Shown one piece after another: positions 5,437 to 21,884 of a DNA stretch of 64,000 nt; the stretch's first letter is position 1; the number at the start of each line of letters is the position of its first letter. The stretch is from NCBI GenBank assembly GCA_951812955.1, contig OX638340.1, positions 2,432,001 through 2,496,000 on the forward strand, read 5' to 3'. The position numbers were made by a program, and so were the translations under genes. Below the pieces are notes generated by a model, which had not been told where the DNA came from, searched no databases, and saw nothing but the letters and a program-made list of their open reading frames with translations. Source of the stretch: an uncultured Gemmatimonadota bacterium (GTDB taxonomy: Bacteria > JAAXHH01).

Positions 5437-6174
5437 TTGCGTATCTTTCCTCTCCCTTCCTGTCCAGGACAGACGGGACCTCTTCGAGTCAGCGGCAAAC
5501 TGAAAACCGCACTTTCGAGACGAATCGACGAGATCGTCGAAGGAGGTCTTGTCATTCCAGATGAAAGCGACGTCGACGGCCAGACGCTTCTCGTGGAGTA
5601 CCCTACACTTTACCCTGGAGACAGTGTCGCCTACGTGGCGCCACGGGTACGAATCGAGGCAGGGGCGAGATCGGCGCTGGATCCCAACCTGACCCGTACC
5701 ATCAAACCATTCATCGCGGATGAGGTGCGAGACTTGTCTTTGGCAGTGGAAAACATCCGCGTTATCGCACCAGATCGCACGCTCTGGGAGAAGCTGTTGA
5801 TCCTGCATGGGTTGTACTGCGGATATCGGGACGCACAGCGTCTACCGGCAGACAGAGATCGGATATCCCGCCACTACTACGATGTTGCCATGATAACGGA
5901 GACCGAGTCCGGCAGGGCCGCTCTATCCAACCTTGAATTGATGGATTCAGTTCGTAAACACAACCTTATTGCGTTTCGACAGGCCTGGAAGAAGTTCGAA
6001 GAGGCCGTACCTGGACGGGTGAAACTGGTTCCTCAGTTGGAACTGCACATGCTGATCGAGCGGGACTATGAAGCCATGCAGGACATGATCCTGGGTGACG
6101 TCCCGAATTTCAGATGGATCGTGGACCAATTGATGCATGCCGAAGCCATTGTCAATGGAACTACGAGAAGTTAA
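5437..6174 (+). CDS. abiEii: AbiEii/AbiGii-family nucleotidyltransferase toxin (DUF1814), TTG start, possibly N-terminally degenerate
   Basis: …IRVIAPDRTLWEKLLILHG… and …RHYYDVAMI… are typical DUF1814 C-terminal motifs. The ORF begins with TTG. The canonical N-terminal GGTAL-type motif is not obvious (GKLKTAL instead). Confidence 0.55.
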   Translation: MRIFPLPSCPGQTGPLRVSGKLKTALSRRIDEIVEGGLVIPDESDVDGQTLLVEYPTLYPGDSVAYVAPRVRIEAGARSALDPNLTRTIKPFIADEVRDLSLAVENIRVIAPDRTLWEKLLILHGLYCGYRDAQRLPADRDRISRHYYDVAMITETESGRAALSNLELMDSVRKHNLIAFRQAWKKFEEAVPGRVKLVPQLELHMLIERDYEAMQDMILGDVPNFRWIVDQLMHAEAIVNGTTRS

Positions 6175-6298
6175 CGTTCATGAATGCCAGGACGGCAGCA
6201 CTATCTCTAATTACACGTCATGATACCTTGACGGTCGTGCTCGATTTCGACGTCAGACAACACGAAGATCAGTCGGACCAATATGAAGGAGCTCCAAC

Positions 6299-6916
6299 AT
6301 GGCAACCCGGCGAGAACTTGCCTTTCCCGTCGAATCTCAGGAAGCCGCTGAACTCGCAATCGAAGATGACCGCACCGGTATCATCCTCGATCCGCTTCGC
6401 TGGCGTCTCCTTGAGATCCTGGGAGCGGGAAAGTCGGTGACGGAGATTTCTGAAGCGCTTGATGTTACGGACGCCCGGGTGCTGTACCACGTGCAGAGAC
6501 TGGCACAGACGGGAGTCGTGCATCTGGAGGATGATGCGGCGGCAGATCCCCGGGAATGGCGGTGTCTGCCCGCGGCGGCAGTGATTAGCGTACAGGAGGA
6601 GCAGGAGGCGGGCAGGTCATCCGGGCAGGAGGACAGACAGGCACAAGTGGCCGTCCCGGAGGCAGTGGCCGGCCAGTTTAACCAGGCTTTTCGCGAAGCG
6701 GCGGAAGGGATGTACGGACCGTCCTTCCAGATGTCCGTCAACCACAACCGCGCGCGGCTGTCAGAAGCCCAGGCCGCCGAATTCAACCGTAGGCTGCTTG
6801 CGCTCATCGAAGAGTACTTCCCTCCCGGAAAAGGAGACCGGTCGGGCGTCAAGTACGGTTTCCACGGCGTGCTAACACCGATCGATCTTCATCCGCTTGG
6901 GGATGCCGAGGGATAG
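6299..6916 (+). CDS. ArsR-family HTH transcriptional regulator with C-terminal extension
   Basis: …ILDPLRWRLLEILGAGKSVTEISEALDVTDARVLYHVQRLAQTGVV… is an ArsR/SmtB-type HTH. At 205 aa it is longer than the minimal ArsR. Confidence 0.6.
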   Translation: MATRRELAFPVESQEAAELAIEDDRTGIILDPLRWRLLEILGAGKSVTEISEALDVTDARVLYHVQRLAQTGVVHLEDDAAADPREWRCLPAAAVISVQEEQEAGRSSGQEDRQAQVAVPEAVAGQFNQAFREAAEGMYGPSFQMSVNHNRARLSEAQAAEFNRRLLALIEEYFPPGKGDRSGVKYGFHGVLTPIDLHPLGDAEG

Positions 6917-6988
6917 GTGTTCGCGGATATCACGAACGTCATCCGCTCGGAGATGCCGGGGGATAGAGAGGTGGGTATACCATAAGCA

Positions 6989-7219
6989 TCACCGGGGTCC
7001 GCGACCATCACCGCGGCCTGAGACGACGGACCACAAGAAGACCGCCATACCTGCCAGCACAAGCACGGCCCCCAGGCAAAGGAACAAAGTCATCGAGACC
7101 GGATGGATCCAGAACAGGGTCGCCACTTCCACGACGAGGCCAACCGCAATCAACAAGCCCGCAATGTAAAGCCGGCCGGCGAATCCAGTTCGACCACCGG
7201 ACCGGAGGGATTCATGCAT
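6989..7219 (-). CDS. Small two-TM membrane protein (hypothetical), last gene of the cytochrome operon
   Basis: An ATG (MHESL…) lies 5 nt after the NrfH-like stop. It has two hydrophobic helices (LYIAGLLIAVGLVVEV…, LFLCLGAVLVLAGMAVFLW). Confidence 0.3.
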   Translation of the reverse strand: MHESLRSGGRTGFAGRLYIAGLLIAVGLVVEVATLFWIHPVSMTLFLCLGAVLVLAGMAVFLWSVVSGRGDGRGPR

Positions 7220-7224
7220 ATCGC

Positions 7225-7852
7225 TCACTCTCCCGCCGCCGGTTCCCATTTGCCAAAACGATCCAGCTTGTCCACCTCATGCACCAGGTTGTGGCACATC
7301 ACGCATGATCTGGTACCGTTGAGCATTTCTCGCAGATAGGGCCGGTGGTCCGGATGCTCCTCGTACGAGCGCGCGCCTGCGTGACATTCGAGGCAGGCCG
7401 TGTTTTCGTAGGGCTCGTACAGCGCGACGGGTTCGGACCACGTCCCCCAGACGTTGTGCCATACGTGCCGCACGCCCCGGATCTTGTCGTCCACGTCCCC
7501 GAACATCGTGTAGTCCGAATGGCAGACGTAGCAGGCATAGTCCGCGGGGATCCGCTTATTCTGGAAATGGGCGGCCGGCAGAAACCGGCCGTCGTCGATA
7601 TACAGGCTTTCCAGGAAGGGTTGGTTGACGTGGCAGGAGACGCAGAACTCGGTCGACTTGGCTTGCTCGTAGTGCTGCACGGTTCCCACCGAGCAGCGCC
7701 ACGCCGGGCAGCAGTAGAAACGTGAAGAACGCGAAGATCATGCCGCCGGCCGAGGCGGTAAGATCGGGCCGCCGCAGGACTACCGCGATCATGGCCAGCG
7801 TAATGGCCGCCAGGACGATCAGGGTGATGGTAAATCCGGTCATTCCGGCCAC
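7225..7852 (-). CDS. NapC/NirT/NrfH-family membrane tetraheme cytochrome c, split into two overlapping ORFs (probable frameshift near 7690-7705)
   Basis: ORF 7556..7852 encodes an N-terminal hydrophobic anchor (MTGFTITLIVLAAITLAMIAVVL…MIFAFFTFLLLPG). ORF 7225..7689 (GTG start, no signal peptide) has four CxxCH motifs (CVSCH, CYVCH, CLECH, CVMCH) in 150 aa. Family members are a single polypeptide of TM helix plus tetraheme domain. Confidence 0.6.
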
Positions 7853-8106
7853 TCAGTTCGACTCCTGTCCCCGGTCGCTATGGCTGCTTCGGTCGGCTCT
7901 ATTGTTCAGGCCGCCGACACTGCTCCGGCCACTTACTCCGCCGAACCGCGCCGGCCGGCTTCCTCACGAAGGTCCCGGGAGAGCGCCCTGATCTCGGCCA
8001 GGTCCTGCACCATCTCGCTCCAGCCGTACCACAGCGCATAGTCGGGATTGTTATGGAAGGTCCCCTGGAATGCCCGCATGCGATGTTCCAGGTGCATCCT
8101 GAAGAG

Positions 8107-9315
8107 TCACTGTTCGATCCTCGAAGGCGCGTCGTGAAACGCCAGCAGGTCGGGATAGTCGTATGCGTAATGTTCCGGCCGGACCAGTACCCCGTCCCGG
8201 TACAGCGCGGAGACGATGCGGATGGCCTCGGCCAGGAGGCGGTCGGTCTCGCGGATCATCTCATCGCCCTTTGCGAGTTCCGCCCGCACGAGGTTTTCCG
8301 AATGGCACTGCTCGCAGATGCCGGTCATGCGGTCGCGCTCCCGCTGCCAGTCCTCCTGGGTCAGCCGGGCCACGTCGGCCTGCCTGACCACATCCAGTCG
8401 CGGGGTGGGGTTGCCGTCCGGGTCCAGCACGCCAAGTGCCTGGAGGATCGTTGCCCGGTCCTCCGCCCACTGCGGGTCTTCCGGCATGGGAAGTCGGACG
8501 GCCAGGAAACCCCAGGCGGTCCGGACGCCGTGATCTCCCTCGGGCATGTGGCAGGTCTGGCACGTAGGCGCCTGGGCATGCTCGGGCAGCGTGCCGTTCT
8601 GCTTGAGCAGATGCCGCACGCCATGCTTGGAGGACGAGTACATTTCCCACTGGGGATGATCGAACCCCATGTGGCACGTCCTGCACGCCTGGGGCTCCCG
8701 GGCCTCCTTCACAGAAAAGAGATGGCGGGTATGACATACGTCGCAGGACGACAGGCCGAAAAGCCCGTCCTGCGCCTTGATCGTCTTAATCTCCTCTTCG
8801 CTCTTGAGGCCGATGCGGTGGCATCCGCCGCAGCCCTTCATACCCTCAGTCAGGGCCATGGGCAGGAAGTGGGTCGTCGGCATGGCGTTCATGCTGGTCC
8901 AGGCAAGGGCGTGCTTGCCCCCCGCGAACTGTTCCACCTGGATCGGATGGCACGTGGCGCACACGTCCGGGGTCGCGACGCCGGCCAGGGCCACGTCCTC
9001 CTCCGTGCGGTGATCGCCGCCGTGACACATGACGCAGTCCACGCCGTTCGTGCTGTGGGTGCTGAGTTCCCAGTCAATTACGATGCCGGGCGTGGCATCC
9101 TGGTGGCAGGCCACGCAGTCGGACGTGGCCCGCGGTGGATCGGCGGAGGGACCGCAGGCGGCAAGGGACAGCAGGAAGAATGATACGATGAAGAAGGATA
9201 CGATGTTGTTAACAAGGATGGCACGGCATACGCGGTACCTGGTTTTAGCAAGGAAGCGACTCCTGGAAAGCAGAGACGTCAGACTACCGGATTGCCGGGC
9301 CATCTTGTACCTCAT
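8107..9315 (-). CDS. Octaheme c-type cytochrome lipoprotein (HAO/ONR/OTR-like multiheme family)
   Basis: Lipoprotein-type signal (…FFLLSLAACG). Eight CxxCH motifs (CVACH, CVMCH, CATCH, CGGCH, CDVCH, CRTCH, CQTCH, CEQCH) within ~340 residues. It sits immediately upstream of the NrfH-like quinol-dehydrogenase-type gene. Confidence 0.8.
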   Translation of the reverse strand: MRYKMARQSGSLTSLLSRSRFLAKTRYRVCRAILVNNIVSFFIVSFFLLSLAACGPSADPPRATSDCVACHQDATPGIVIDWELSTHSTNGVDCVMCHGGDHRTEEDVALAGVATPDVCATCHPIQVEQFAGGKHALAWTSMNAMPTTHFLPMALTEGMKGCGGCHRIGLKSEEEIKTIKAQDGLFGLSSCDVCHTRHLFSVKEAREPQACRTCHMGFDHPQWEMYSSSKHGVRHLLKQNGTLPEHAQAPTCQTCHMPEGDHGVRTAWGFLAVRLPMPEDPQWAEDRATILQALGVLDPDGNPTPRLDVVRQADVARLTQEDWQRERDRMTGICEQCHSENLVRAELAKGDEMIRETDRLLAEAIRIVSALYRDGVLVRPEHYAYDYPDLLAFHDAPSRIEQ

Positions 9316-9880: not shown

Positions 9881-10495
9881 TCATGGCCCCTCCCAGGGCC
9901 GTATCCTCGGAAACCAGCGCGGCACGTTCGCCTTGTACAACCGGTAGGGTTCACCGAACCGGCGCTCGAGGCCCGGCTCCTCGTAGAACGGGAAGTAGAT
10001 CGCGCACACAACGAAGAACACGCACATCCAGGCCGCAAGGTGCCATGAGCCGAAGAGCAGGGCTTCGGCGCCGAGTATGAGCACCATACCCGAATTCATG
10101 GGGTTGCGCACGTGGCGATAAGGTCCGAGGACGACCAGCTTCTCGGGCGGAGCCCAGGGCGCTGGCGTGCCCTTCCCGACCCTGTCGAACAGCGCCATGG
10201 TCCAGGCGGCAAGGAACAGGCCGTCCACCGCCATCGCGACCCCGATCCAGAACCGGAACTGCGCGGGTTCCGCCGGTGACAGCGCGCCCGGCGAGTCTGA
10301 CGATATCCACAGTATCACGCCCGGAACGTAGACCGTAGCAGCTGCCGGAAGGAGAAGGACGGTCTTCGCAGTAGTCCATTTCACGCGGGACACCCCCTCG
10401 CACGGTCCATAGTGTCCATTTCGTACATTGGCGATTATTCCATTCGGCCGCTCAGCGACACCCATGACGAAGGGATAAAAACCGGTCCATGTCAA
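9881..10495 (-). CDS. Isoprenylcysteine carboxyl methyltransferase (ICMT)/phospholipid methyltransferase-family membrane protein
   Basis: The C-terminal motif …LVVLGPYRHVRNPMNSGMVL…EEPGLERRFGEPYRLYKANVPRWFP is the ICMT/PEMT signature. The true start is probably the internal GTG (VKWTTAKTVLLL…). Confidence 0.7.
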   Translation of the reverse strand: MTWTGFYPFVMGVAERPNGIIANVRNGHYGPCEGVSRVKWTTAKTVLLLPAAATVYVPGVILWISSDSPGALSPAEPAQFRFWIGVAMAVDGLFLAAWTMALFDRVGKGTPAPWAPPEKLVVLGPYRHVRNPMNSGMVLILGAEALLFGSWHLAAWMCVFFVVCAIYFPFYEEPGLERRFGEPYRLYKANVPRWFPRIRPWEGP

Positions 10496-10791: not shown

Positions 10792-11733
10792 ATGCATGGC
10801 GCCGAGAACGATATTCCATTTGAAGGCGAGGGGACTCATACAGGCGGGCCGGACCGGGCTGTTGACGATACGATCCGGCTGAACTGGCGCGAGAAGCTGG
10901 TTGAAGTCGGCCTGATGATGGTAATGTTCACGTGCGGTATGCTGATCGGAATGTTCGTCATCATAGCTTCTCTGCTTACCATGCGAAGTACATTCGAGCA
11001 GTTGGCCCCGGGATTCATGGAAGTAGGTTCGATTCCGCTCATCATTCTGGTCGTCGTGGCCGTGATCGTCGGGAATATCTGTTCGTTCAGCTGCGCTCCC
11101 TACCTCATACGTCTCTTCTTTCGGGGCTACGAGTTGAAGGACGAGCGGATCGACCGCGCTTTGGATCACCTGATTTCCGTGACCGGGATGGAAATCAGGG
11201 CCGAACGGATCTACGCCATAAAGGGCAGGACGGCCAACGCCGTCGTGGCCGGCCTCTTCCGGAAGGGTCAGTACATCTTCTTTACCAACAGGCTTCTGGA
11301 GAGAATGAGAGAAGGAGAGATCATGGCGATCCTGGCGCACGAACTGGCCCATGTGCGGCACCGGCACATGCCGAGGATGATGCTGGGCATCGTGCTATGG
11401 ACCCTCGGCATCCAGGTATTCTTCTGGCTGATTGGCTTCCAGGTTTACTTCGAATCGATCGAAGAATCCTGGAAAATGTGGGTGTATGGCGGAATAAATG
11501 CCTTGAACTTCTACCTGCTTGTTTTCCTCGTTCTGTTCCCGCAGTCGAGGCGTCACGAATACGAGGCGGATGAGGCCGCCGCCCGGTGGGTGGGCATAAG
11601 CCAGTACAAGCAGGCCCTTTACCGGTTGCATCAATTGAATGACCAACTGAAACCACCGAGGAAGATCCTGTCGAAGCTAAGTACCCATCCGACGCTTCAG
11701 CAGAGGCTGGAGCGGGTGGGGAATCTGGAATAA
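10792..11733 (+). CDS. M48-family (Ste24/HtpX-type) zinc metalloprotease, copy A
   Basis: Two N-terminal TM helices, then HELAHVRHRH (HExxH), two more TM helices, and a downstream EYEADE third zinc ligand. ~55% identical over its length to the 16245..17192 protein. Confidence 0.8.
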   Translation: MHGAENDIPFEGEGTHTGGPDRAVDDTIRLNWREKLVEVGLMMVMFTCGMLIGMFVIIASLLTMRSTFEQLAPGFMEVGSIPLIILVVVAVIVGNICSFSCAPYLIRLFFRGYELKDERIDRALDHLISVTGMEIRAERIYAIKGRTANAVVAGLFRKGQYIFFTNRLLERMREGEIMAILAHELAHVRHRHMPRMMLGIVLWTLGIQVFFWLIGFQVYFESIEESWKMWVYGGINALNFYLLVFLVLFPQSRRHEYEADEAAARWVGISQYKQALYRLHQLNDQLKPPRKILSKLSTHPTLQQRLERVGNLE

Positions 11734-11799
11734 CGTGTGACTGGTGTTTCAGCGTGCTATCCGCGTTTGTAAGGAAGGTTACAGGACGTGTATACGGAC

Positions 11800-13023
11800 T
11801 CACTCCATGTTCATCGCATCCACCGGGCTCAGCTGCGAAGCCTTCAAGGCGGGATATATTCCGGCACATAGACCTATTGCCAGTGAGATCGCCAGCGACA
11901 AGAGGATATTGGAAACCGACGTACCAGTCGTGAAAGTGAGATCCAACACCTGATTCAATACGAACGAGAAAACCGATCCAAGGCCCAGTCCCAGCAATAT
12001 CCCCAGTAACCCCCCTAAAGCACTGATACCTATGGCTTCCAGCGTGAATTGATTCACGATATCGACGTGTCTGGCTCCTACTGACTTCCTAATACCTATT
12101 TCCCGCCTTCGTTCCGTTACGGAGACCAGCATCATATTCATGATCCCGATTCCACCCACCATCAGTGAGATGCCCGCCACGGCGGCAATCGCCGACTTAA
12201 CGGCGTTAATCACACCTCCTATCTGGTCCATTGCGTTTTTTCCGCTGACTATGTCAAATCCGGGCGCATCACCATGGATTGTCTTCAAGGCTGCCTCAAT
12301 GTCATCCACCGCAATTTCCATGACACTCGAATCCACTACCTTGATGGTCAAAAGGTCGAAGCCTTCATGGCCAAGCATCCTTTTCTGGACCGTCGTTATC
12401 GGAACGAAGACCCGGTTGCCCCAACTTTCATTGAAAACAATCTTTGGCTTCATGACGCCGATCACGGCAAATCTCTGACCATTCAGTTTCACTTCCTTGC
12501 CGACCGGATTGGTATCGTCAAACAATCTAGCGGCCAGTTCATCGCCCAGTACACATACTTTTCGCCAGCGCTTGACGTCGCGGTCGGTAATGAATCGACC
12601 CGTGGAAACCGACCACTGGTACATCTCCGGAAATGAAGGCGTCGTGCCGTACAACATCCCTCCATGCGACGTTTTTGCGAATCTGAGATCTACATTCAAT
12701 GTCGCGGCGGGGACCAATTGGCGCACGGCGCTCGATCTTCTCCCGATTTCCAGCATATCCTGCCAGACAAGATGCTCGTAATCGGATACAGGCATCCAAC
12801 TTCCTTCCCTATTTTCGTATCTCGATGGACTCACCCACACCATGGAGCCGCCACGTACGGATTCGAATTCATCCATCACCATGTCGTGAAGCCCCTCTCC
12901 AATCACGATGATGCCTGTTACAGCGCCAATGCCGACCGCAATCCCCAGCAGCGTCAGGACCGAACGCAGCCTGTAGTGAACGAGATTGGTAAACACCGTG
13001 TGGACATGGTGCGCTAAAGACAT
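11800..13023 (-). CDS. MacB/FtsX-type ABC transporter permease (YknZ-like), no fused or adjacent ATPase
   Basis: N-terminal TM1 ([18 protein letters not shown]), a large periplasmic domain, and three C-terminal TM helices with the FtsX motif region (…[14 protein letters not shown]…). No Walker motifs. Confidence 0.8.
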
Positions 13024-13045
13024 AGACGACAGGGTCCGTAGAGGA

Positions 13046-14260
13046 CTATTGGTGTTTCGATTTCAGCGCGATATGAACCGCTCTTGCATCCGCTGCGATG
13101 TGTGCTCCAGGTTCGATACCGGACAGAATCTCCACATATTCAGTCGATTCAATTCCGATCTCGACCATGGTGGATTCCAGGTATTCTTCCGGACATTTCG
13201 ACATACCAGGGTCCATCGAAGTACAACGATAAACCACGTACGGCTTGCCGGGCACCGACCCAGTAGATGCTGTTTCCTTCTGTTCAGTGGCTATACCTAC
13301 GTAATCACCCATTTCCATGACCGAAGATGCAGGCGCAAGCAGCGAGCCTTCATTCTTCTCCAACACGATGTCGATATCGCAGGACATTCCCTGCTGCAAA
13401 TCCAGCGATGGATTCGATATCACGATTTCGGCATCGAACGTTACAAGCGCACTCCCGGGTTTCCGCACACCGATAGGCGCCAACCGCTCAACATGCCCGC
13501 TGTACAATGTGTCCGGGTAGGCATCGACACGAATCCGTACTTCCTGTCCAGGCCTGACCCTGCCTGCGTCAATTTCCCCAATGGCCGATTTGACGATCAT
13601 TCTGTCCGGATCGCCAATATGAAACATCTCCGTACCGCCGGTATACGAGGAGGTGCCCGATGCTACGACCTCGCCCGTTTCCACCATGCGGGCAACGACG
13701 ATGCCGTTCAAGGGAGACAGGATCCTCACGGCATCATGCGTTCTGTTGGAATCCACCTCAACATTAACCTTCAGTTCAAGTATTTTGAGTTCGAGTTCCG
13801 CCATGTTGAGATTATGATTGGCCTTGGTTTTTTCAATCCTTGCCTTGTCGAATTCCGCAGACGATATCAGGGATCTCTCATGTAATTCACGCTTTCTTTT
13901 AAAGGAGATCTCTTGTTCTGACAGATCTATTCGAGCGCCTTCAACTCTGGCGCGCTGCCGGGACAACTGAAGGGACTGAGACGGATCCGGCTCTATCACG
14001 GCAAGGACATCCCCCTTTGATACCGTATCCCCTACATCGGCGTGAATATGCCTGATTTCCCCGGATATGGTGGGTTTGACCATGACGGTCCTGACAAACT
14101 GGATCGTACCTGTCTCCACCAGGATATCGGAGATCGTTCCATGTTGAACCTGGAGTATTGGGAACGAGGCAACCCGGACCGTGGAACTGTAAACAAAGTA
14201 CAGTAGAACGGCTACGAGAATGCATGCCGATACGCAGACAATGACTATGCGTTTTTTCAT
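13046..14260 (-). CDS. HlyD/MacA-type periplasmic adaptor (membrane fusion protein, YknX-like)
   Basis: N-terminal anchor [22 protein letters not shown], a coiled-coil segment ([19 protein letters not shown]…[12 protein letters not shown]), and barrel/lipoyl motifs (…VKPTISGEI…[13 protein letters not shown]). Confidence 0.8.
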
Positions 14261-14281
14261 GTCAGCGGTGATTTCCAGGAA

Positions 14282-15013
14282 TTACACGTAAACGGTACCA
14301 AGGTTCTCCATGGTCCTGCGAATGACAATCCACATGCACCACACTAGTCCCAACGCGAACCATGTGAGTATAACCGATCCCTGGAAAGTCCGTGCAAGAC
14401 CCAACCCCAGCAGGTAAAGAAACCAAATACCGAAAAAGTCGACACCTGTAAGGAACAGGCCCGGGAGGGTTTCGAGGTCTGCATCGTCGAGCAACACACC
14501 AGGATGGATAGCCGGATCTAGCGACCCCCAAAGCAGAACCAGCGTGGTTTTGACGACTGTTTCGGGTACGAGGACAAGCAAGGCGTAGCCGGTAATCGGC
14601 AGAACCTTGTTGTACGGCAGGAGCTTACCGAAGATCAATTCTCCGCTGTGTTTCCCTACAACCGACCACGCGACAAGCATAAGGCAGACGCTGGCCGGCA
14701 TGATTAAAAGACCGGCGAGTTGCCTATGGTCGAATTTCGAAGCCTCGCGCAGGATAATAGATTGCTGAAACATACTGAGATTCGAATAGGACTGGAGTTC
14801 CATTTCGATCAACGCCCGTTCCGTATCCAGCGCAACCGGCAAAGTTACTATCCCGGCGATCAGTACGACCGACACGATAACGATCAGAATCAGGATCGAC
14901 TCAGAGGCGGACTGTTCAGTTTCAAGATCCGCAAATGCCCTCCCGGGACTGTAATAGACTCGTAGCCATCGCCTGGCATATCTTCCCATATCTATTGACG
15001 CGCTCAAGGACAT
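14282..15013 (-). CDS. Yip1-domain family membrane protein (YknW-like)
   Basis: The N-terminal …RVYYSPGRAFADLE… followed by 5 hydrophobic helices is the bacterial Yip1-domain pattern. It sits directly upstream of the HlyD and FtsX genes, as in B. subtilis yknWXYZ. Confidence 0.55.
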   Translation of the reverse strand: MSLSASIDMGRYARRWLRVYYSPGRAFADLETEQSASESILILIVIVSVVLIAGIVTLPVALDTERALIEMELQSYSNLSMFQQSIILREASKFDHRQLAGLLIMPASVCLMLVAWSVVGKHSGELIFGKLLPYNKVLPITGYALLVLVPETVVKTTLVLLWGSLDPAIHPGVLLDDADLETLPGLFLTGVDFFGIWFLYLLGLGLARTFQGSVILTWFALGLVWCMWIVIRRTMENLGTVYV

Positions 15014-16224
15014 AGATCTCCCATGATGACCAGATGGTAGTAGCTGTGTCCGCCACCGGACCAGAATGGACTATTCCAGGGCCAGAACCTCCACCAGATT
15101 GGTTTGGAACGGGTATATGCACCTTGGCGAAAACTCTCCAGGAAGGTACTGATGTGATGTACCGTGCTCGTGGAAAGATGCCTGCCGACTCTCTTGGGAT
15201 GGGATTCCACGCCGAGGTAAGAACGAATCATAAGGCTGTGTTCATCGATTGGAAGCGCATCGACATTCTCGACGTACCAATTGAACACGTAGTAGAAGTG
15301 GTTTATGAGGAAGTACTCAACGTTAGAAACATAGAAAACGGAAATGCTCGAGTCGTGGGCTTCAGCGTAAGAACCGATGGCCCTCAACGTCTTCTCGCCC
15401 GCGAAGTTTCCCACGACGGGAATGATCAGGTTCCTGTGATGCAGGCGCTTCACGAACCTGAATGTATCTTCGGTAAACAAGAAACTGGCGAATTCTCCCT
15501 CCACAGTCGTACCTGTCATCAGGTCTTTGAACGAAGGATAGGATAACCCGTTGCCCAGTCGTGTTTCAGCGTATGTAATCGAAAGCTGTTTTTCGTAAAA
15601 CGATCGGTATATGTAGCGCATCCTGTCGAGATCGTACCGATCTTTGATCCCATACATGCCTACTTCCCGACTGAGCCGCCTCCAATTCTGTTTAAAAAAC
15701 AGTGAGTCGGCCGTGGTCGACGATTCGATGTATTCCAGGACTTCCGTAACGGAAGCGGTTTTATCCGGTAATCCGTTCAAAGCCAATCCGACTTCCCGGT
15801 TATGTCTACTGAACAGCAGCATCAGGAAGGATGTCCGGTCCCGGGCCAGGGTAAAAAGGGCTTTGTAGAGGAGATGCTGAAGCAGGTTTTCACGTCGGAT
15901 GTCGACGACAAATGCGATTTCCGGTCTCGTAGCAGCGATGTAGGAGAAGTTCTGTTCCGTACCGACGCCGATATAGACGCCGCCGCGTTTTCCCAGTTCG
16001 ATTACGGTCGGGACAACGTGCAGGTAGGACGATTCATTGGAAACGAAGTTGTCGCCGGGAAAGTGACCGGGATCTTCGGAGAACGCAGTCATGATCCTGG
16101 CGAATTCGGACAGCGCAAGGGAGTCCGGCAACGCCCCGTAAGATGGGAAGCGCAGGTCAGTCAGCGCGCCGATGGTCAGTAGCAGTATGACAACTCGAAT
16201 CAACTTCATCGGTTTTACATCCAT
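15004..16224 (-). CDS. Secreted protein of unknown function
   Basis: Signal peptide MKLIRVVILLLTIGALT. 406 aa, no motifs I can assign. Translationally coupled (overlap) to the Yip1 gene. Confidence 0.5.
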   Translation of the reverse strand: MDVKPMKLIRVVILLLTIGALTDLRFPSYGALPDSLALSEFARIMTAFSEDPGHFPGDNFVSNESSYLHVVPTVIELGKRGGVYIGVGTEQNFSYIAATRPEIAFVVDIRRENLLQHLLYKALFTLARDRTSFLMLLFSRHNREVGLALNGLPDKTASVTEVLEYIESSTTADSLFFKQNWRRLSREVGMYGIKDRYDLDRMRYIYRSFYEKQLSITYAETRLGNGLSYPSFKDLMTGTTVEGEFASFLFTEDTFRFVKRLHHRNLIIPVVGNFAGEKTLRAIGSYAEAHDSSISVFYVSNVEYFLINHFYYVFNWYVENVDALPIDEHSLMIRSYLGVESHPKRVGRHLSTSTVHHISTFLESFRQGAYTRSKPIWWRFWPWNSPFWSGGGHSYYHLVIMGDLCP

Positions 16225-16244
16225 TCCATCTGCATTTGGTTCGT

Positions 16245-17192
16245 CTATTGCGCGTCCAACCTTGACACGCGGTCGAGACGGTTCTGCATCGTGGGGTGGG
16301 TCAGAAGTACTCTAACAAATCTCGGTGGTGGCTTTAAATTGTCATTGACTTGATGAAGACGGTAGAGCGCCCGTTTGTATTGCTCCGTGCCCACCCATTT
16401 TGCCGCCGTAGCATCTGCTTCGTATTCGTTACGCCTCGATAGCGGGTAAATGACCAGAAACATGAGAAGCCACACGTTCACGGCATTTAAAAGCCCGTAC
16501 GTCCACATTTTAAAAGACTCATCCATTGCATCGACATATGCACTGAAATCTAGCAGATACAGGAAAGCCTGCATCCCGCAGACCCACATAAATGTAGCCA
16601 ACTGCATCTTGGGAAGATGCCTGTGACGAACATGGGCCAATTCGTGGGCGAATATTGCCAAAATCTCCTCTTCGTTCGCTTTCGCCAGAAGTTTGTCCGT
16701 AAAGAAGATGTACCTGTTTTTGCGGAAAAGCCCAGTTACCATCGCGTTGGCAGTCCTGCTCTTGATGGTGTACAGGGTTTCTGCCGCAATGTTCATATCG
16801 ACGGACGATATCAGCTTCCCGACTGACCGATCCAGGCGATCGTCCCGTAACTCGTATCCACGGAAGATGAGACGTATCAGATATGGAGAACACAACCATG
16901 CACAGGCGTTCCCTACGGTTGCCGACAGGATGACCAGCAACACAATCGTTAAGGAACCTTGGTCCAATAGACCCGGAACTCCCTGAACAATCATGTCATC
17001 CGCGGTTAACAGAATGCTTAAGAACACGAATACCGCGATCAATATGCCCACCAGGGTCACACTCATGTTCAACCCGATTTCGACCAGTCTGTCGCGCCAG
17101 GTCAACCGGATTGGTTCATCTTTAATCGATGAAGCGCCGCCGGCTACTTCATTTATACGGTGTGTAGGTTCGACCATTATTTCCTTCTTCAA
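16245..17192 (-). CDS. M48-family (Ste24/HtpX-type) zinc metalloprotease, copy B
   Basis: HELAHVRHRH and NEYEAD motifs. Same topology as copy A and clearly paralogous to it (RLTWRDRLVEIGL…PYLIRLIFRGYELRDDRLDR…). Confidence 0.8.
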   Translation of the reverse strand: MKKEIMVEPTHRINEVAGGASSIKDEPIRLTWRDRLVEIGLNMSVTLVGILIAVFVFLSILLTADDMIVQGVPGLLDQGSLTIVLLVILSATVGNACAWLCSPYLIRLIFRGYELRDDRLDRSVGKLISSVDMNIAAETLYTIKSRTANAMVTGLFRKNRYIFFTDKLLAKANEEEILAIFAHELAHVRHRHLPKMQLATFMWVCGMQAFLYLLDFSAYVDAMDESFKMWTYGLLNAVNVWLLMFLVIYPLSRRNEYEADATAAKWVGTEQYKRALYRLHQVNDNLKPPPRFVRVLLTHPTMQNRLDRVSRLDAQ

Positions 17193-17199
17193 ATCAGCG

Positions 17200-17850
17200 T
17201 TATGACATAACGGCTTGTACCAGGCCGTTTAGCGCGACGTATGCCAGGATCACGCCGACTGCTTTGAACCTGGGCATCAAGCAGACCCTGTGCACCGCTT
17301 CGATGGCAAAAGCGACCACCAGGGTCAAAGCAATATACCGACCGTATCGAATCCACTTAAGCAACCCGATATCCTGCATCTTCGTGATCTCGCCGGGCAA
17401 TTGATCGATCGTGGCCAGGTTCGACAGTCCGACATAGACCATCTGGTCTGAAAACGCAAGCATGAGAACGACCGCCATGATCGAATACACTGTAACCGGG
17501 GTGTATGCGACACCCAGCCATCCAAACAGCGCGCGATGACGACGTCTACTGTTCAATAGCGCAACAACGATCATTACAAACAGCCAACCGAACACGAAAA
17601 TCACGATTTCGCCCAATGTGACGCCCAATATCATGGTTATGAACATAACTGAGAATAACTGTGCATATGTTTCGGTAAGATGATCCGGTATTTGTCCTGC
17701 AACTGACCTGAAAGTCAGAAAAAGTACGATCCCGTTCATAAGCAAGTATATGACAAACATGCCGATGCCCGTCGAGAGCGGTTCGGTTACACTGATTGAT
17801 ACCAGCCTGTCGGATGCCCTGCGTGGAATTTCCATTTTCTGTCCGTTCAA
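17200..17850 (-). CDS. Polytopic membrane protein (possibly Yip1-like), hypothetical
   Basis: 216 aa with 5-6 hydrophobic helices. It follows the SpoIIM-like gene with a 4-nt overlap. Confidence 0.45.
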   Translation of the reverse strand: MNGQKMEIPRRASDRLVSISVTEPLSTGIGMFVIYLLMNGIVLFLTFRSVAGQIPDHLTETYAQLFSVMFITMILGVTLGEIVIFVFGWLFVMIVVALLNSRRRHRALFGWLGVAYTPVTVYSIMAVVLMLAFSDQMVYVGLSNLATIDQLPGEITKMQDIGLLKWIRYGRYIALTLVVAFAIEAVHRVCLMPRFKAVGVILAYVALNGLVQAVMS

Positions 17851-18518
17851 TTGATTTTGTTCGCTATTTGTCCAGTGACAAAGGTTTCTATAATCGAAGC
17901 CACCGTGATCAGAAGGAATCCGGTGACGAGTCTGCGTACGTTCAAGGCCAACCTATCCGAATCTATGAGCCATGTATCGAACTTGAGTTTTTGGCAAAAG
18001 AGGACCAGACCTTCGCATCCCACAGCGCCGAAAAACACAAACCCCGCCAACTCAATCACGCCATGGGGTAGAATCAAAGCGGCTATGTGGTATATCGAAG
18101 CACCGGAATCAACCGCAGAAAGCGTAGACCATGCCACGATAGTTCCTGTCCAGCCCAATATCACAACACTGACCAATCCAAAGGACAGAAGGCCCAATAG
18201 TATTTTCATGGAAACGAGGAAATTGTTGCCAATAATGAAACGCCATTCATCCCCACCGTCCAAAAAGGGACGTGAATCCAGCATGAGGGTGGAGCTACCC
18301 GGATCTGTTGGTTTATTCTCAATCATATCCAGGGGCATTGCCGCTCCAACACCCAAGCCGACGATGACAGAAGCAAAGGAAATTAAAATGGGTAGTTTGC
18401 TTGGTTTGCGCGTTGACATAGATCCCACACTAGGTATCATCCATAAATTCCGAGGAAAGGATGGAGGCCATTTTCGGCCTCCATCCATCGTACTTACCAG
18501 CTTGTTAAATTCCAGCAC
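17847..18518 (-). CDS. SpoIIM/DUF95-family integral membrane protein
   Basis: 223 aa with multiple TM helices. Its overall pattern resembles the stage II sporulation protein M / DUF95 family. Its start overlaps the 3' end of the peptide gene by 14 nt. Confidence 0.45.
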   Translation of the reverse strand: MLEFNKLVSTMDGGRKWPPSFPRNLWMIPSVGSMSTRKPSKLPILISFASVIVGLGVGAAMPLDMIENKPTDPGSSTLMLDSRPFLDGGDEWRFIIGNNFLVSMKILLGLLSFGLVSVVILGWTGTIVAWSTLSAVDSGASIYHIAALILPHGVIELAGFVFFGAVGCEGLVLFCQKLKFDTWLIDSDRLALNVRRLVTGFLLITVASIIETFVTGQIANKIN

Positions 18519-18789
18519 CTATAAACACGGCGCCAACACCGGTTCCAATGCCAACGCTGGCCACGAGACCATAGCCGGCTGCTGTCAGCCAACCAATTGT
18601 TCCACCACCAGCCAATCCACCCAGTGCAACACCGCCAACCAGGGACGCATTGGAACCCCACAAGCAGTAAGCGAGGTTCGGCGACGCTGCGATGCCCGGT
18701 GTTTCAGCCAGCGGCGAACTGGCCGTTGAGTTGACGCTCGCGCCTGCGATCAGGGCGAACATGAACACTGAGAGAATGAGTTTTTTCAT
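18505..18789 (-). CDS. 94-aa secreted Gly/Ala-rich hydrophobic peptide precursor (bacteriocin-like / glycine-zipper-like)
   Basis: The ATG at 18789..18787 has a GAGGGG SD 9 nt upstream. Sequence: MKKLILSVFMFALIAGASVNS|TASSPLAETPGIAASPNLAYCLWGSNASLVGGVALGGLAGGGTIGWLTAAGYGLVASVGIGTGVGAVFIGAGI. It has a Sec-type signal, then a ~73-aa uncharged segment with repeated GxxxG motifs. Confidence 0.55.
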   Translation of the reverse strand: MKKLILSVFMFALIAGASVNSTASSPLAETPGIAASPNLAYCLWGSNASLVGGVALGGLAGGGTIGWLTAAGYGLVASVGIGTGVGAVFIGAGI

Positions 18790-19114
18790 AATGATTTGTT
18801 CCCCTCGATTTTGGTATATATCGAACCAATGTGGTTTATCCTTCGAAAGACTCTGTAATGCCGTTAACCTCCTTTCCTCTCTCAAATTAGATTCCATCCG
18901 CCGTTCTCATTCGATGCGACGTCATTCTCTGCCCAGGTACCAGGAAACTCGGTTGCAGGTCTCGGAATGCGCAGTTCCGAGAGAAAGCGTCGATCTCTTA
19001 ACGGGGACTCGACCTAATGTTAAAACTGAATCCAGTAACTGTGACCGCAGCGATCTATCACAATTAGTCTCCGTGAATCCCCGGTTCTCGTAGACAATCT
19101 CTATTTCCTGCAAT

Positions 19115-19143
19115 AAAAAAGCCCGGCGATCGTACCGCCGGGC
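19115..19143 (-). terminator. Rho-independent terminator after the large secreted-protein gene
   Basis: The minus-strand RNA folds as GCCCGGCG-GUACGAU-CGCCGGGC followed by UUUUUU. It lies between the 19275 gene end and the peptide-operon promoter region. Confidence 0.6.
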
Positions 19144-19274: not shown

Positions 19275-21884
19275 CTACTCCCCGTCCCCATCCCCCACCG
19301 CATCCAGCAGCGCTTCCCGCGTCATGCCATCGGGAGGCGTGTTTAGGCCCGATTCCTCGCCCGGGTCGGCGACGAGCCAGATGCCGCGCTCGAGGGCGTA
19401 GCCATCTCGTTCGGAGGCCTTTTGGAGGAGTTCCTGCAGGTCTTCGCCATCCATCAGGCCCAGCAGCCCGACGGGGATCACCCGGGCGGAGATTCCCCTT
19501 TCGCGCAGGAAGCCCGCGTACCAGTCGGGAGGACGTTCATAGGAGAACACGAGAAAGGGGCGTTCCGGCGTGCCGGCGCCCCGCCAGAATCCCAGGCGAT
19601 ACCAGTCCGGCCGCAGGGAGCGGACGAAGGCGCCGTGGCGCAGCCGGGGATTGATTTCGTCCATGGACTGCCGGTACAGCGTGCCGAGGCGCTCCGCGTT
19701 GGCTTCCTGGAGCTGGATATAGGTCTCGAGGTATCCCGACTTGAGCAGCCACTCGAACCGGTCTTCCCGGTCCAGTCCCATGAGCGACCTGAATTCGTCG
19801 CCGTGGTACAGACCGTTCCGGACGAGATGCCGGATGAAGTACCGGAAATGCAGGTCGTCGAAGACGTCGGTCGCGGCATAGGCGTGCCGCGGACGCGTGA
19901 TATGGGGATCCCAGTCGTGCACGATGGCCTGCGGGGCCCCCTGGAGGCGGCTGTGCCGGGCGATGGCGCGGGCCGGCTCAAAGAGGTGGCGGTTCAGGTA
20001 TGCCATGTCGAGCCGGGAAGGCAGGTCGACGTCCTCCCCGCGGGCGTTCAGGGCGGCTGCGTAGTCGCCGGTGATCTCGCGCTCGCGAGGGGCGCTGACG
20101 CCGGCGTACCAGGCCGTCGGTGTGCCGCCCACGCGGCTGAGGATGGGCATGGCCCACGATTCGAAACGCACGTCGCCCGTCACCGCCGCGCCCCCGGTGT
20201 AACTGGCAGCCGGCGCCACGGTCCAAAGGAAGTCCATCCCGAGGCCGGGCAACGTTCCGGCGAGTTCGGACACGTGTTCATGCCGGCGGGCGATGAAATC
20301 CCAGACGCCTCGAAGCGGTACGGCATCCGTCGTGCCGGTAGAGAGGCCGGCGTCTGCCGAGTCGCCGGGACTGGGGCGGGCTTCGGCGTCCACGCTGGCG
20401 TCTGAGCCGGAACCCGGACCAGCGCCCAGCTCTGCACTTGAACCTGTGCCGGCTCCGGAACCCGTGCCGTCGCCTGTGCCCGCGCCGTCGCCTGTGCCCG
20501 CGCCGGGTCCGTCATCCGGACCGGACGCCGCGCTGCTGAGCACCCGGACCCGTTCGGGCGCCGCCGTCCTTATGGATACGTTGTTGAGGGAGAAATCCGG
20601 TTTCCGGTTGCCGGGCATCTGGGCCGTGGCATAGTCGTGTTCGGGAGACCAGTCTCCGGGGGAATCGACCAGCGCGCGGACGTAGCTCGCGAGTCCGTCC
20701 ATAAAATCATCCAGTCCTTCGAGATCGGCTTCCCGGGGGCGGATGCCCAGGGGCGGCAAGGGCCGGTCGAGCCCGGATAGCACCTGGCGGTCAACGGCAA
20801 GGACGAATCCCTCGTTCAGCCGGCCGGTCCGTCCCGCGGCCGCTACCGCCATGCGGCCGAAGGTCTCCTCGTCGCCTCGCATGGTTTCCAGGTCTTCGGC
20901 CGACCCGATCTCTTCCCGGATCTCCCGGTCGGCGAAAGCGGCGGCGATGATCTCCACCGGAACGCCCACCAGCGCGTATTCGGATCCCCAGCGGTTTCCG
21001 GACATGCGCACGGTCAGCGTGTCCTTCGCATCTGAAACGCCTTCCACCCTGCCCTTGAATCTCGCCGCGGTCCAGTCCACCGGCACGAGCCGATCCCGGT
21101 TCCGGTACTGCAGGCTGGTCCGCAGCTCCTGGTCGCCGCGCAGCAGCAGTTCGACGTCTTCTCCCGCAATCGCGTCCGCGGGGGAGATACGCAAGGTACG
21201 CCGGACTACGCGGTATTCGGGTTCGGGTTCGGGTGCGGGTTCCGGTTCGATCTCCTCTCCAGGGTCCGGCGCTTGAGGTTCCACGAGCAGCGGCTCGGCA
21301 CCGTCGCCCACGAGCAGCCGGGTGCCGGCGCGGGCGGCCACGCTGCCGTCCATGCCCCGCCCGACCGGGTGGCCGTCGGCAATTTCGAAATAGACCACGG
21401 GGTTCAGGACTGGACTGGTTTCGTGGTCGGCGTTCAGCGCGTGCAGGTTGATGTTCAGACGGGCCAAGATCTCGTTGAACTGATACCGGTCGTGGACGCC
21501 GGGATTGACCTTCCTCCGCTCGCTGTAGGGCCCGTCGGAGGGCATCGCCAGCACGAGCACTTTACCCCGCGACACGAAGTTGATGACCAGGTCCACTTCC
21601 TGGATGCTCATGCCCGGATCGCCGCCGCCCAGAAGCACGATGGCGTCGTAGTCCCGGGCGTCCCGTTCGACCATGGCCGGATAATACGGCCGGTAGTCGA
21701 CGTCGAACCCCGCTTCCGAGAACGCCTGTATCATCCCGGTGTGCTCTTCCGGATAGGCCATGGCGTATTCGACGACGAGCAGGCGGGGATCGCCGTTCGG
21801 CCCGGCGGACGGCTCCTGCCTCGCGCTTGCGGAGTAATTGGGCGCCAGGAATACAATCAGGCAGACAATCAGTTTGATTCGCAT
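19275..21884 (-). CDS. Large secreted protein of unknown function with Gly/Thr/Asp-rich repeat linker
   Basis: Signal peptide MRIKLIVCLIVFLAPNYSASA. 869 aa. The internal low-complexity repeat is GAGTGDGAGTGDGTGSGAGTGS. High GC. Confidence 0.6.
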   Translation of the reverse strand: MRIKLIVCLIVFLAPNYSASARQEPSAGPNGDPRLLVVEYAMAYPEEHTGMIQAFSEAGFDVDYRPYYPAMVERDARDYDAIVLLGGGDPGMSIQEVDLVINFVSRGKVLVLAMPSDGPYSERRKVNPGVHDRYQFNEILARLNINLHALNADHETSPVLNPVVYFEIADGHPVGRGMDGSVAARAGTRLLVGDGAEPLLVEPQAPDPGEEIEPEPAPEPEPEYRVVRRTLRISPADAIAGEDVELLLRGDQELRTSLQYRNRDRLVPVDWTAARFKGRVEGVSDAKDTLTVRMSGNRWGSEYALVGVPVEIIAAAFADREIREEIGSAEDLETMRGDEETFGRMAVAAAGRTGRLNEGFVLAVDRQVLSGLDRPLPPLGIRPREADLEGLDDFMDGLASYVRALVDSPGDWSPEHDYATAQMPGNRKPDFSLNNVSIRTAAPERVRVLSSAASGPDDGPGAGTGDGAGTGDGTGSGAGTGSSAELGAGPGSGSDASVDAEARPSPGDSADAGLSTGTTDAVPLRGVWDFIARRHEHVSELAGTLPGLGMDFLWTVAPAASYTGGAAVTGDVRFESWAMPILSRVGGTPTAWYAGVSAPREREITGDYAAALNARGEDVDLPSRLDMAYLNRHLFEPARAIARHSRLQGAPQAIVHDWDPHITRPRHAYAATDVFDDLHFRYFIRHLVRNGLYHGDEFRSLMGLDREDRFEWLLKSGYLETYIQLQEANAERLGTLYRQSMDEINPRLRHGAFVRSLRPDWYRLGFWRGAGTPERPFLVFSYERPPDWYAGFLRERGISARVIPVGLLGLMDGEDLQELLQKASERDGYALERGIWLVADPGEESGLNTPPDGMTREALLDAVGDGDGE

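Follow-up and report, generated by a model that had tools for sequence, protein, structure and literature searches.

The stretch of DNA analysed here (the window, 64,000 nt) covers positions 2,432,001 to 2,496,000 of contig OX638340.1 in assembly GCA_951812955.1 of an uncultured Gemmatimonadota bacterium, and it contains two diverged genes of the M48 protease family, named M48-A and M48-B, one beside and one within an operon that starts with a small precursor peptide and ends with transporter components. M48-A is located on the plus strand (10792..11733), has a GGAGG ribosome-binding site, and encodes a protein of 313 amino acids (aa) with four predicted transmembrane (TM) helices, HELAH at residues 183-187 and EYEAD at 256. 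M48-B is located on the minus strand, where the mechanically called open reading frame spans 16245-17192 (315 aa) with a TTG start at 17192. Since all close homologs are 310 aa long and begin at the equivalent of the ATG at 17177, which is preceded by GAAGAAGGAAATA, the gene most likely extends over 16245..17177 and encodes 310 aa with four TM helices, HELAH at 178-182 and EYEAD at 251.

The two proteins align over their full length save the first ca. 12 residues (BLASTP: 163/306 identical positions, 53%; 73% positives; 5 gap positions; E = 5e-128), in agreement with the end-to-end paralogy noted in a preliminary description of the sequence. Both match Pfam Peptidase_M48 (PF01435) far above the cut-off of 20.3 bits, M48-A with 95.9 bits (E 3.5e-27) and M48-B with 100.1 bits (E 1.8e-28), and the four hydrophobic segments of the one coincide in position with those of the other. 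At the DNA level only a 565-nt stretch could be aligned, with 66% identity, and the pair is therefore regarded as an old duplication and not, as had already been noted, as recent DNA duplicates. A recent inverted-repeat or transposon-like origin was ruled out by this low identity together with the clade-wide conservation of the pair; hence the inverted repeat around cargo genes that was initially described carries no mobile-element meaning. In a tblastn search of the PLSDB plasmids with M48-B, only weak matches to M48 genes of Ralstonia were obtained, and no mobile copy. HELAH and EYEAD are present in both proteins, and H178, E179, H182 and E251 (M48-B numbering) are invariant in 57 family members, so the HExxH...E site is intact as it had appeared to be. 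Fixed differences that separate the two clades number only 11, and most of these substitutions are conservative. Judged by motif, both copies are catalytically competent and neither is a pseudo-protease, which disposes of the protease/pseudo-protease immunity pair suggested earlier.

The operon is tightly packed on the minus strand from 18789 to 11800, in the order precursor peptide, SpoIIM, Yip1-like protein, M48-B, DUF7790, Yip1, HlyD-type adaptor and MacB_PCD/FtsX permease. M48-B is thus its fourth gene, and M48-A converges on the 3′ end of the operon across a gap of 66 bp, so that one copy lies inside the operon and the other runs towards its end, as first described. SpoIIM (17847..18518, minus strand) is a membrane protein of the SpoIIM/DUF95 family (Pfam SpoIIM, 7.6e-14); its true start is probably near 18428, because its orthologs are annotated with lengths of 192-253 aa, in most cases 192-212. 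The following gene (Yip1a, 17200..17850, minus) encodes a Yip1-like polytopic membrane protein with about six hydrophobic segments and a weak Pfam Yip1 match (3.3e-4) that is under the cut-off. Downstream of M48-B, an exported protein similar to DUF7790 / LIC_10091 (15004..16224, minus) combines an N-terminal signal anchor with a class I methyltransferase-like fold. DUF7790 was considered as a marker of the system and rejected, as its distant relatives (39-40% identical) occur on their own, in unrelated gene neighbourhoods. The second Yip1-domain membrane protein (Yip1b, 14282..15013, minus) is YknW-like, with a Pfam Yip1 match above the cut-off (4.2e-07), a weak match to NCBIfam YknW_fam, and five hydrophobic segments. 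Yip1a and Yip1b have no pairwise similarity (E 0.6), which ruled out a duplicated Yip1-M48 unit.

The last two genes encode a HlyD/YknX/MacA-type membrane-fusion periplasmic adaptor (13046..14260, minus; Pfam HlyD_D23 and HlyD_3, and TIGR01730 RND_mfp above cut-off), whose orthologs match Beta-barrel_YknX, and a YknZ/MacB-like permease with MacB_PCD and FtsX domains and no ATPase domain (11800..13023, minus; Pfam MacB_PCD 1.3e-40, FtsX 1.6e-18). The permease matches residues 262-647 only of the NCBIfam MacB model and is 84-86% identical in relatives. A gene for the ATPase of this MacB-type permease was absent from the operon, both in the window and in every relative examined. In two relatives, a MacB/LolD-type ATPase is encoded beside another YknX-like adaptor ca. 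4.6 kb past the operon FtsX gene (L093 19604-20275, L094 19996-20667); it is absent at the corresponding place in the window, where synteny ends at about 6279. The operon also differs from its surroundings in G+C content at third codon positions (GC3), which is 0.50-0.63 in the operon, 0.76-0.82 in the flanks and 0.73, i.e. host-like, in M48-A. This operon-wide dip recurs in every relative, as does the host-like value of M48-A.

The first gene of the operon (18505..18789, minus) encodes a 94-aa precursor peptide without Pfam or NCBIfam match. On the basis of alignments, it consists of a conserved signal-peptide-like N-terminus (MKKLILSVFMFALIAGA), a conserved segment of about 25 aa that contains a single Cys, and a C-terminal part that is hypervariable, hydrophobic and rich in Gly/Ala; there is no C-terminal Cys. 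The gene is preceded by a conserved non-coding leader or promoter region (18790..19120, minus) of ca. 320 nt, which reaches from the peptide start to the intrinsic terminator of the upstream 869-aa gene (19121..19143, minus; a 10-bp stem, 8 of its pairs GC, and then a T-run; conserved in relatives). The terminator at 19143-19121 marks the 5′ limit of the operon. In an alignment of 10 loci the leader contains invariant blocks, i.e. GACTAAT, GGATTCA, the hairpin TCTCGGAA-N7-TTCCGAGA, and AGGAAAGGAGG, and it could act as a long regulatory leader. Covariation support for the leader was not found, an Rfam scan of the window at 6-22.5 kb returned nothing, and a sigma-70 promoter scan performed no better than on shuffled sequence.

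A search of 5.8 billion proteins returned 74 close homologs (E <= 5e-85), after which the scores fall from 304 to 67 bits and reach ordinary Ste24-type proteins. All named close homologs were from Gemmatimonadetes/Gemmatimonadota. When 1.84 billion cluster representatives were searched exhaustively with a profile, only 12 reached E <= 1e-30, mostly fragments of the A/B family, and a profile scan of genome contigs detected mostly generic M48 genes, with only the loci L001-L003 being relevant. M48-A and M48-B thus belong to a very small M48 subfamily, observed here only in Gemmatimonadota assemblies. In a neighbour-joining tree rooted with the nearest outgroups, the family (bootstrap 100/100) divides into two clades, A and B, with 86/100 for the B clade; a protein from locus L085 (P0073) branches before the A/B split with 50/100. 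The phylogeny, which had been proposed as the way to judge the age of the pair, points to one old duplication within this lineage that left two clades and a conserved pair.

Gene neighbourhoods were read in 14 related loci. The exact layout of the window, with both M48 genes and the flanks, was found in L001, L002, L081, L083, L086, L087, L088, L093, L094 and L095; in L082, a second assembly carrying the protein P0012, both copies are in the window order and the record stops at M48-A. Both copies are therefore present in eleven syntenic relatives, in two of which M48-A is frameshifted (L093, L095). L085, the locus of P0073, has the same operon with one in-operon M48 gene and no M48-A, and L089 has a single A-like M48 gene converging on FtsX-HlyD-YknW, with different genes upstream. 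Judging from tree and synteny together, the duplication predates the radiation of those lineages in which both copies occur, and it probably took place after the L085 lineage had separated. Family members are located in or directly beside this operon, or a related YknWXZ-type module, in 13/14 loci, L003 being the exception. The concern that relatives might carry these genes as singletons without the peptide operon is accordingly borne out in one case, for copy A in L003 (with a defence island in place of the operon).

Pairwise identity matrices of eleven genes from nine loci, together with sliding windows, separated the locus into two parts. The matrices of the 869-aa gene, DUF7790, Yip1b, HlyD, FtsX and the PEMT-like methyltransferase gene next to M48-A largely agree, and group L002, L086, L088 and L081 on the one hand and L083 and L087 on the other, with L001 near the latter, the window separate and L085 as outgroup. 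The peptide, SpoIIM, Yip1a and M48-B follow another division, into type I (window, L002, L081), type II (L001, L086, L087, L088) and type III (L083, L085), which cuts across the backbone groups. For example, L002 and L088 are highly similar in FtsX (92% identical), HlyD (93%) and M48-A (82%), as opposed to SpoIIM (45%), Yip1a (42%) and M48-B (64%); in this pair of near species the signal part of the peptide is 93% identical and its core 20-30%. Sliding windows placed the variable block from just past the signal sequence of the peptide to the end of M48-B: among near species the signal part of the peptide is 93-97% identical and the remainder 20-30%, and at the other edge DUF7790 returns to 83-100% identity within its first 20-30 residues. 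Across relatives, Yip1a is 40-75% and SpoIIM 40-77% identical. Within M48-B the first ca. 80 residues, i.e. the N-terminal tail and TM1-loop-TM2, are the most divergent (23-57%), followed by TM3-TM4 (53-67%) and the catalytic core (63-80%).

The SpoIIM and Yip1a matrices are closely correlated (r = 0.93), and M48-B correlates at about 0.6-0.7 with cassette genes and operon backbone genes alike. M48-A correlates with the backbone (r 0.58-0.76) and hardly with the cassette (r 0.01-0.26), and subgroups of the A clade co-occur with different cassette types. On the basis of these comparisons, the peptide core, SpoIIM, Yip1a and M48-B form a recombining hypervariable cassette that is incongruent with the species backbone, in which M48-B is the in-operon, cassette-borne paralog and M48-A the paralog of the backbone. 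Between the window and L094, the synonymous substitution rate (dS) is low, 0.10-0.18, for the 869-aa gene, the peptide, SpoIIM, Yip1a and M48-B, with 0.19 for HlyD and 0.16 for the PEMT-like gene, and high, 0.30-0.37, for DUF7790, Yip1b, FtsX and M48-A. Such uneven dS values are a further sign of putative recombination mosaicism in the locus.

The window and L094 share ca. 90-95% DNA identity, and all genes compared between them are under purifying selection. M48-A is the fastest of the eleven (77% identity; nonsynonymous rate, dN, 0.125; dN/dS 0.41), whereas M48-B retains 96.5% identity (dN 0.018; dN/dS 0.17). The same M48-A frameshift, after ...SVTGMD and upstream of HExxH, is found in L093 (15443-16380), which is a long-read chromosome, and in L095 (15444-16381), a short-read scaffold from another sample; M48-B is identical in L093, L095 and L094, and M48-A is intact in L094. 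The FtsX gene of L093 is split, which may be an assembly error. In L003 (OZ241920.1, 10944-20065), the A-type gene is intact and the C-terminus of the 869-aa gene is found ca. 9 kb away, the whole operon being replaced by a low-GC (0.42-0.47) island of ca. 9 kb, which in this locus encodes HNH, HATPase_c_3, EcoRII-N and SNF2 helicase proteins; two giant LRR/Big_2 proteins are encoded on the other side of the M48 gene. Because M48-A is intact without the operon beside it in L003 and frameshifted in two assemblies, it appears as a backbone copy under weaker constraint that is dispensable in some strains and not strictly tied to the peptide operon.

As to the kind of M48 protease, the NCBIfam HtpX equivalog models matched M48-A and M48-B with 27-69 bits (best 56 and 68.7, respectively) against cut-offs of 245-422, i.e. 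4-15 times under every cut-off. The general layout is HtpX-like, with two N-terminal TM helices, the catalytic domain and two further hydrophobic segments; hydropathy placed the segments at 40-58, 78-96, ca. 196-214 and 225-249 with HExxH at 178, and the helices of an AlphaFold2 (AF2) model concur. A PDB search with the family profile retrieved Ste24p as the best match (E 6e-17), which covers only Ste24 residues 191-445 (the C-terminal 255), and the HtpX domain with E 3e-4. Foldseek with the AF2 model of M48-B, which is of moderate quality, likewise placed ZMPSTE24/Ste24p on top (E 2e-9; best-match TMq, the TM-score normalised by query length, 0.55-0.61), followed by BepA and BlaR1. The seven-helix chamber of Ste24 is missing from these proteins of 310-313 aa and four helices, and PF16491 was matched by neither. 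Basic residues are nearly absent from the loops at 59-77 and 215-224 and abundant (Arg/Lys-rich) in other regions, and by the positive-inside rule the catalytic domain is predicted to face the cytoplasm.

M48-A and M48-B are hence predicted to be inner-membrane zinc metalloproteases with a Ste24-like catalytic core on a short, four-helix HtpX-like scaffold. With Ste24/ZMPSTE24 (M48A) they share HExxH...ExxAD and the best profile and fold match in the catalytic region and the last membrane helices, but Ste24 proteins have ca. 420-480 aa, the seven-helix chamber and PF16491, whereas the window proteins, of about 310 aa and four helices, have no evident CAAX-type substrate. With HtpX (M48B) they share size, the four hydrophobic segments flanking the catalytic domain and the predicted cytoplasmic active site, but they fall below all equivalog thresholds and are lineage-restricted, operon-embedded, duplicated and cassette-linked. 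By these scores, and given the tiny family, they are not housekeeping HtpX, a point on which the preliminary description had sought assurance.

Divergent from M48-A, a PEMT/ICMT-like membrane methyltransferase is encoded at 9881..10495 (minus; Pfam PEMT 2.2e-11), for which protein-S-isoprenylcysteine O-methyltransferase was the best NCBIfam name, with 33.5 bits against a cut-off of 160. It is adjacent and divergent to M48-A in 10/10 syntenic loci compared, and not next to it in L003 and L089. Just past this gene, at 7225-9315 (minus), multihaem cytochrome genes (402 aa and 154 aa) are found; their orthologs belong to the Cytochrome_C554, Multi-haem_cyto and Cytochrom_NNT families and are variably present or rearranged among relatives. 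On the other side, the 869-aa protein (19275-21884, minus) has a signal peptide, a low-complexity linker rich in Gly/Asp/Ala/Thr/Ser and no Pfam match; in every relative it directly precedes the operon, has a terminator of its own and is 65-80% identical to the window protein. In L089, an 8.7-kb contig, the YknW-HlyD-FtsX/M48 module (5553-8706) lies beside a LanB-type dehydratase fragment, encoded upstream of it, for which matches were obtained to 9jhq, a biosynthetic protein of goadsporin (E 3.5e-12), and to 6ec7, a LanB-type dehydratase of thiopeptides (E 1e-6). The contig also has two unannotated genes with GC3 of 0.45-0.48. L089 is a probable cluster for a ribosomally synthesized and post-translationally modified peptide (RiPP), and lends independent support to a link with peptide natural products.

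The gene content may be compared with two described systems. A circular-bacteriocin cluster is defined by a precursor gene together with genes for transporter proteins and for SpoIIM, formerly DUF95; Yip1 genes are frequent beside three accessory ABC components (PMC8659200). The enzyme for leader removal and cyclization is not known for these bacteriocins, and clusters with an M48 or M50 gene are rare (PMC8659200; PMC8534725); in the few that have M48, the gene is found either next to the precursor or three genes downstream of it (PMC8659200; 10.1101/2025.10.31.685828; PMC8534725), the latter being the case in two "group 1" clusters (PMC8659200). The conserved cluster of altitudin S from Bacillus comprises SpoIIM, YIP1, ABC subunits and a hallmark M48 gene (bioRxiv 10.1101/2025.10.31.685828). 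Known and predicted producers are almost all Firmicutes, and an ATP-binding protein is required in the cluster (PMC8534725). In the window, SpoIIM is directly downstream of the peptide gene, as these clusters have it (PMC8659200, PMC8534725); M48-B is placed three genes downstream of the precursor and is itself followed by accessory ABC-type transporter parts; the signal-peptide-like hydrophobic leader and a precursor length of 76-113 aa are likewise as in these clusters. Circular-bacteriocin precursors combine a hydrophobic leader with a core of ca. 58-70 aa; in the 94-aa peptide of the window, the basic and hydrophobic N-terminus resembles those of the AS-48, gassericin and amylocyclicin precursors, and the same stretch also reads as a plain Sec signal. 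The window differs in its diderm host, in a precursor of no detectable homology and higher Gly content, in having no ATP-binding protein, and in the additional DUF7790 and second, convergent M48 paralog. Sample labels and the LRR-rich neighbours hint at sponge symbionts as the hosts.

The second system is YknWXYZ of Bacillus subtilis, which among characterised relatives is the closest to the downstream module and protects from the SDP peptide toxin (PMC4887032), together with the YIP1/cycEFG accessory transporter of the cerecyclin cluster, the documented role being protection from a membrane-active peptide toxin (PMC4887032; PMC8534725). Yip1 (YknW, with a weak YknW_fam match), the membrane-fusion protein (YknX) and the MacB_PCD/FtsX permease (YknZ) occur in the same order in the window. 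Unlike YknWXYZ, the module has no YknY ATPase gene, neither in the window nor in any relative examined, belongs to a diderm host, is flanked by an M48 protease and is preceded by DUF7790.

Taking these results together, the operon may be a peptide locus of the circular-bacteriocin type, in which M48-B is a cassette-specific protease acting on the peptide, in maturation or self-protection, and M48-A a transporter-associated and partly redundant paralog. We rate the chances of this interpretation as about even, and the evolutionary and structural statements, taken alone, are much more secure. After one old duplication in the lineage, A and B would have taken different roles. The secreted peptide would be polymorphic and membrane-active, and the operon would encode it along with three inner-membrane proteins cognate to it (SpoIIM, Yip1a and M48-B); DUF7790, the YknW-like Yip1, the YknX-like adaptor and the YknZ/MacB-like permease would form a conserved module for export or expulsion. 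Because the membrane helices of M48-B vary, it is through these that M48-B may recognise the core of its cognate peptide within the bilayer. It would then either trim the precursor (leader removal or maturation) or destroy peptide that re-enters the producer (self-immunity), two readings that are computationally inseparable. M48-A would be the backbone paralog linked to the transporter module, unmatched to the cassette and partly redundant. The earlier proposal of peptide processing with distinct specificities is consistent with the co-variation of only B with the peptide and with the M48 genes in published clusters, and the function itself is kept here as a suggestion. Antagonism and immunity loci typically show the features seen here: the leader is conserved and the core hypervariable, polytopic partners co-vary, the composition is atypical, and another island can take the place of the locus.

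Several observations weigh against this interpretation. Neither a Walker A motif nor an ABC signature was found at 6-22 kb of the window, i.e. no ATP-binding protein in or next to the operon, and the operon therefore departs from the published requirement for one (PMC8534725). A 9-sequence profile of the peptide matched the sets of circular-bacteriocin subgroups ii and i with hhalign probabilities of 0.4% and 0.03%, as compared with 75% for the control of subgroup ii against subgroup i (known precursor sequences from the supplement of PMC8659200), and at ca. 29% Gly, counted by eye, the peptide is far richer in Gly than known precursors. Because its N-terminus, MKK-LILSVFMFALI-AGA|S, reads from the sequence as a standard Sec signal with a signal-peptidase site at AGA|S, a dedicated leader protease may not be needed. 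Moreover, the M48 active site is predicted to be cytoplasmic, whereas a Sec-exported peptide would be periplasmic, and the confidence of the M48-B model is only moderate (pLDDT 70, pTM 0.64). Flanking synteny is common to all relatives, and the conserved adjacency is for that reason a weak sign of functional coupling. The nearest outgroup M48 protein, P0110, has unrelated neighbours; its 3.4-kb contig carries a gene for an NtrC-type regulator next to it and is uninformative as to the ancestral context.

If the operon served efflux or envelope defence in the manner of YknWXYZ/MacAB, the small Gly-rich protein would be a membrane subunit instead of a product, the M48 proteases would regulate or clear pump parts, and pressure from phages or foreign toxins on surface-exposed parts would drive the cassette variability. 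The presence of Yip1, membrane-fusion protein and MacB_PCD/FtsX permease, the resistance to a peptide toxin given by YknWXYZ (PMC4887032), the want of homology to known bacteriocins and a Gly-zipper-like C-terminus that could anchor the peptide in the membrane all fit such a system. The variation, however, is concentrated in the peptide core and in three polytopic inner-membrane proteins instead of the adaptor or the periplasmic domain of the permease, and SpoIIM, Yip1 and M48 beside a small precursor make up a published bacteriocin-cluster architecture; we consider the efflux explanation unlikely. Toxins and their cognate partners usually display just this combination, in which the leader is conserved, the core varies and the membrane proteins co-vary. 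Both genes could also be quality-control proteases of the HtpX type that act on misfolded membrane proteins, with their position as incidental synteny. A four-TM, HtpX-like topology with a cytoplasm-facing catalytic domain, HtpX models as the only NCBIfam names matched, the A-type copy without operon in L003 and an adjacency possibly inherited with the shared flanks instead of selected would agree with this. We nevertheless hold it to be quite improbable, given scores far under every equivalog cut-off, a family of ca. 75 proteins from one lineage with a big gap to other M48 proteins, which is unlike a housekeeping gene, the translational packing of B in the operon with its atypical GC3, the co-variation of the B membrane helices with peptide, SpoIIM and Yip1a, and the recurrence of an A-like copy beside the RiPP cluster of L089.

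Two further explanations concern M48-A in particular. Its highest dN and dN/dS of the eleven genes, the same frameshift in two independent assemblies with identical B, and clade-specific substitutions too few and conservative to favour a new specificity would suit a redundant duplicate heading for loss, without a distinct role and with only B functional. Yet M48-A has remained intact, with all catalytic residues, in nearly all lineages since before the clade radiation, its dN/dS of 0.41 still denotes purifying selection, it survives intact after operon loss in L003, and a copy in the A position is the sole M48 gene in L089; these points speak for a role of its own, and mere redundancy is rather unlikely. 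Ste24-like cleavage followed by carboxyl methylation constitutes the eukaryotic CAAX pair, and M48-A with the divergent PEMT/ICMT-like methyltransferase might by analogy form a C-terminal processing pair acting on a lipidated protein. The catalytic core nearest to Ste24/ZMPSTE24, the isoprenylcysteine methyltransferase as best-named match of the neighbour and the constant divergent adjacency of the two genes recall that pair, but the methyltransferase match falls well short of its cut-off, a C-terminal Cys is missing from the peptide, a prenyltransferase gene was not seen, M48-A lacks this neighbour in L003 and L089, and the adjacency is confounded by shared synteny; this last explanation is very improbable.

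The peptide-locus interpretation can also be taken a step further, to a SpoIIM-dependent, circular-bacteriocin-like system, the first in a diderm phylum, with exchangeable allelic cassettes, in which M48-B is the leader-removing enzyme of its own peptide variant and perhaps a helper in ring closure. This is a doubtful proposition at present. If true, the co-variation of M48-B helices and peptide core would be the first evolutionary evidence naming a processing enzyme of this bacteriocin class, and three diverged cassettes on an otherwise near-identical backbone, beside the unmatched paralog M48-A as a built-in control, would amount to a natural experiment. The paralogy itself is ordinary; what is new is the M48-bearing SpoIIM/Yip1 peptide cluster in a diderm phylum, its cassette polymorphism and the unmatched paralog. 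Should the peptide not be a bacteriocin, the locus would come down to two paired membrane proteases, specific to this lineage, within an efflux operon, and would be of modest interest. Otherwise, it would extend SpoIIM-type peptide systems to a Gram-negative phylum and show a peptide-antagonism locus evolving via cassette exchange in uncultured Gemmatimonadota.

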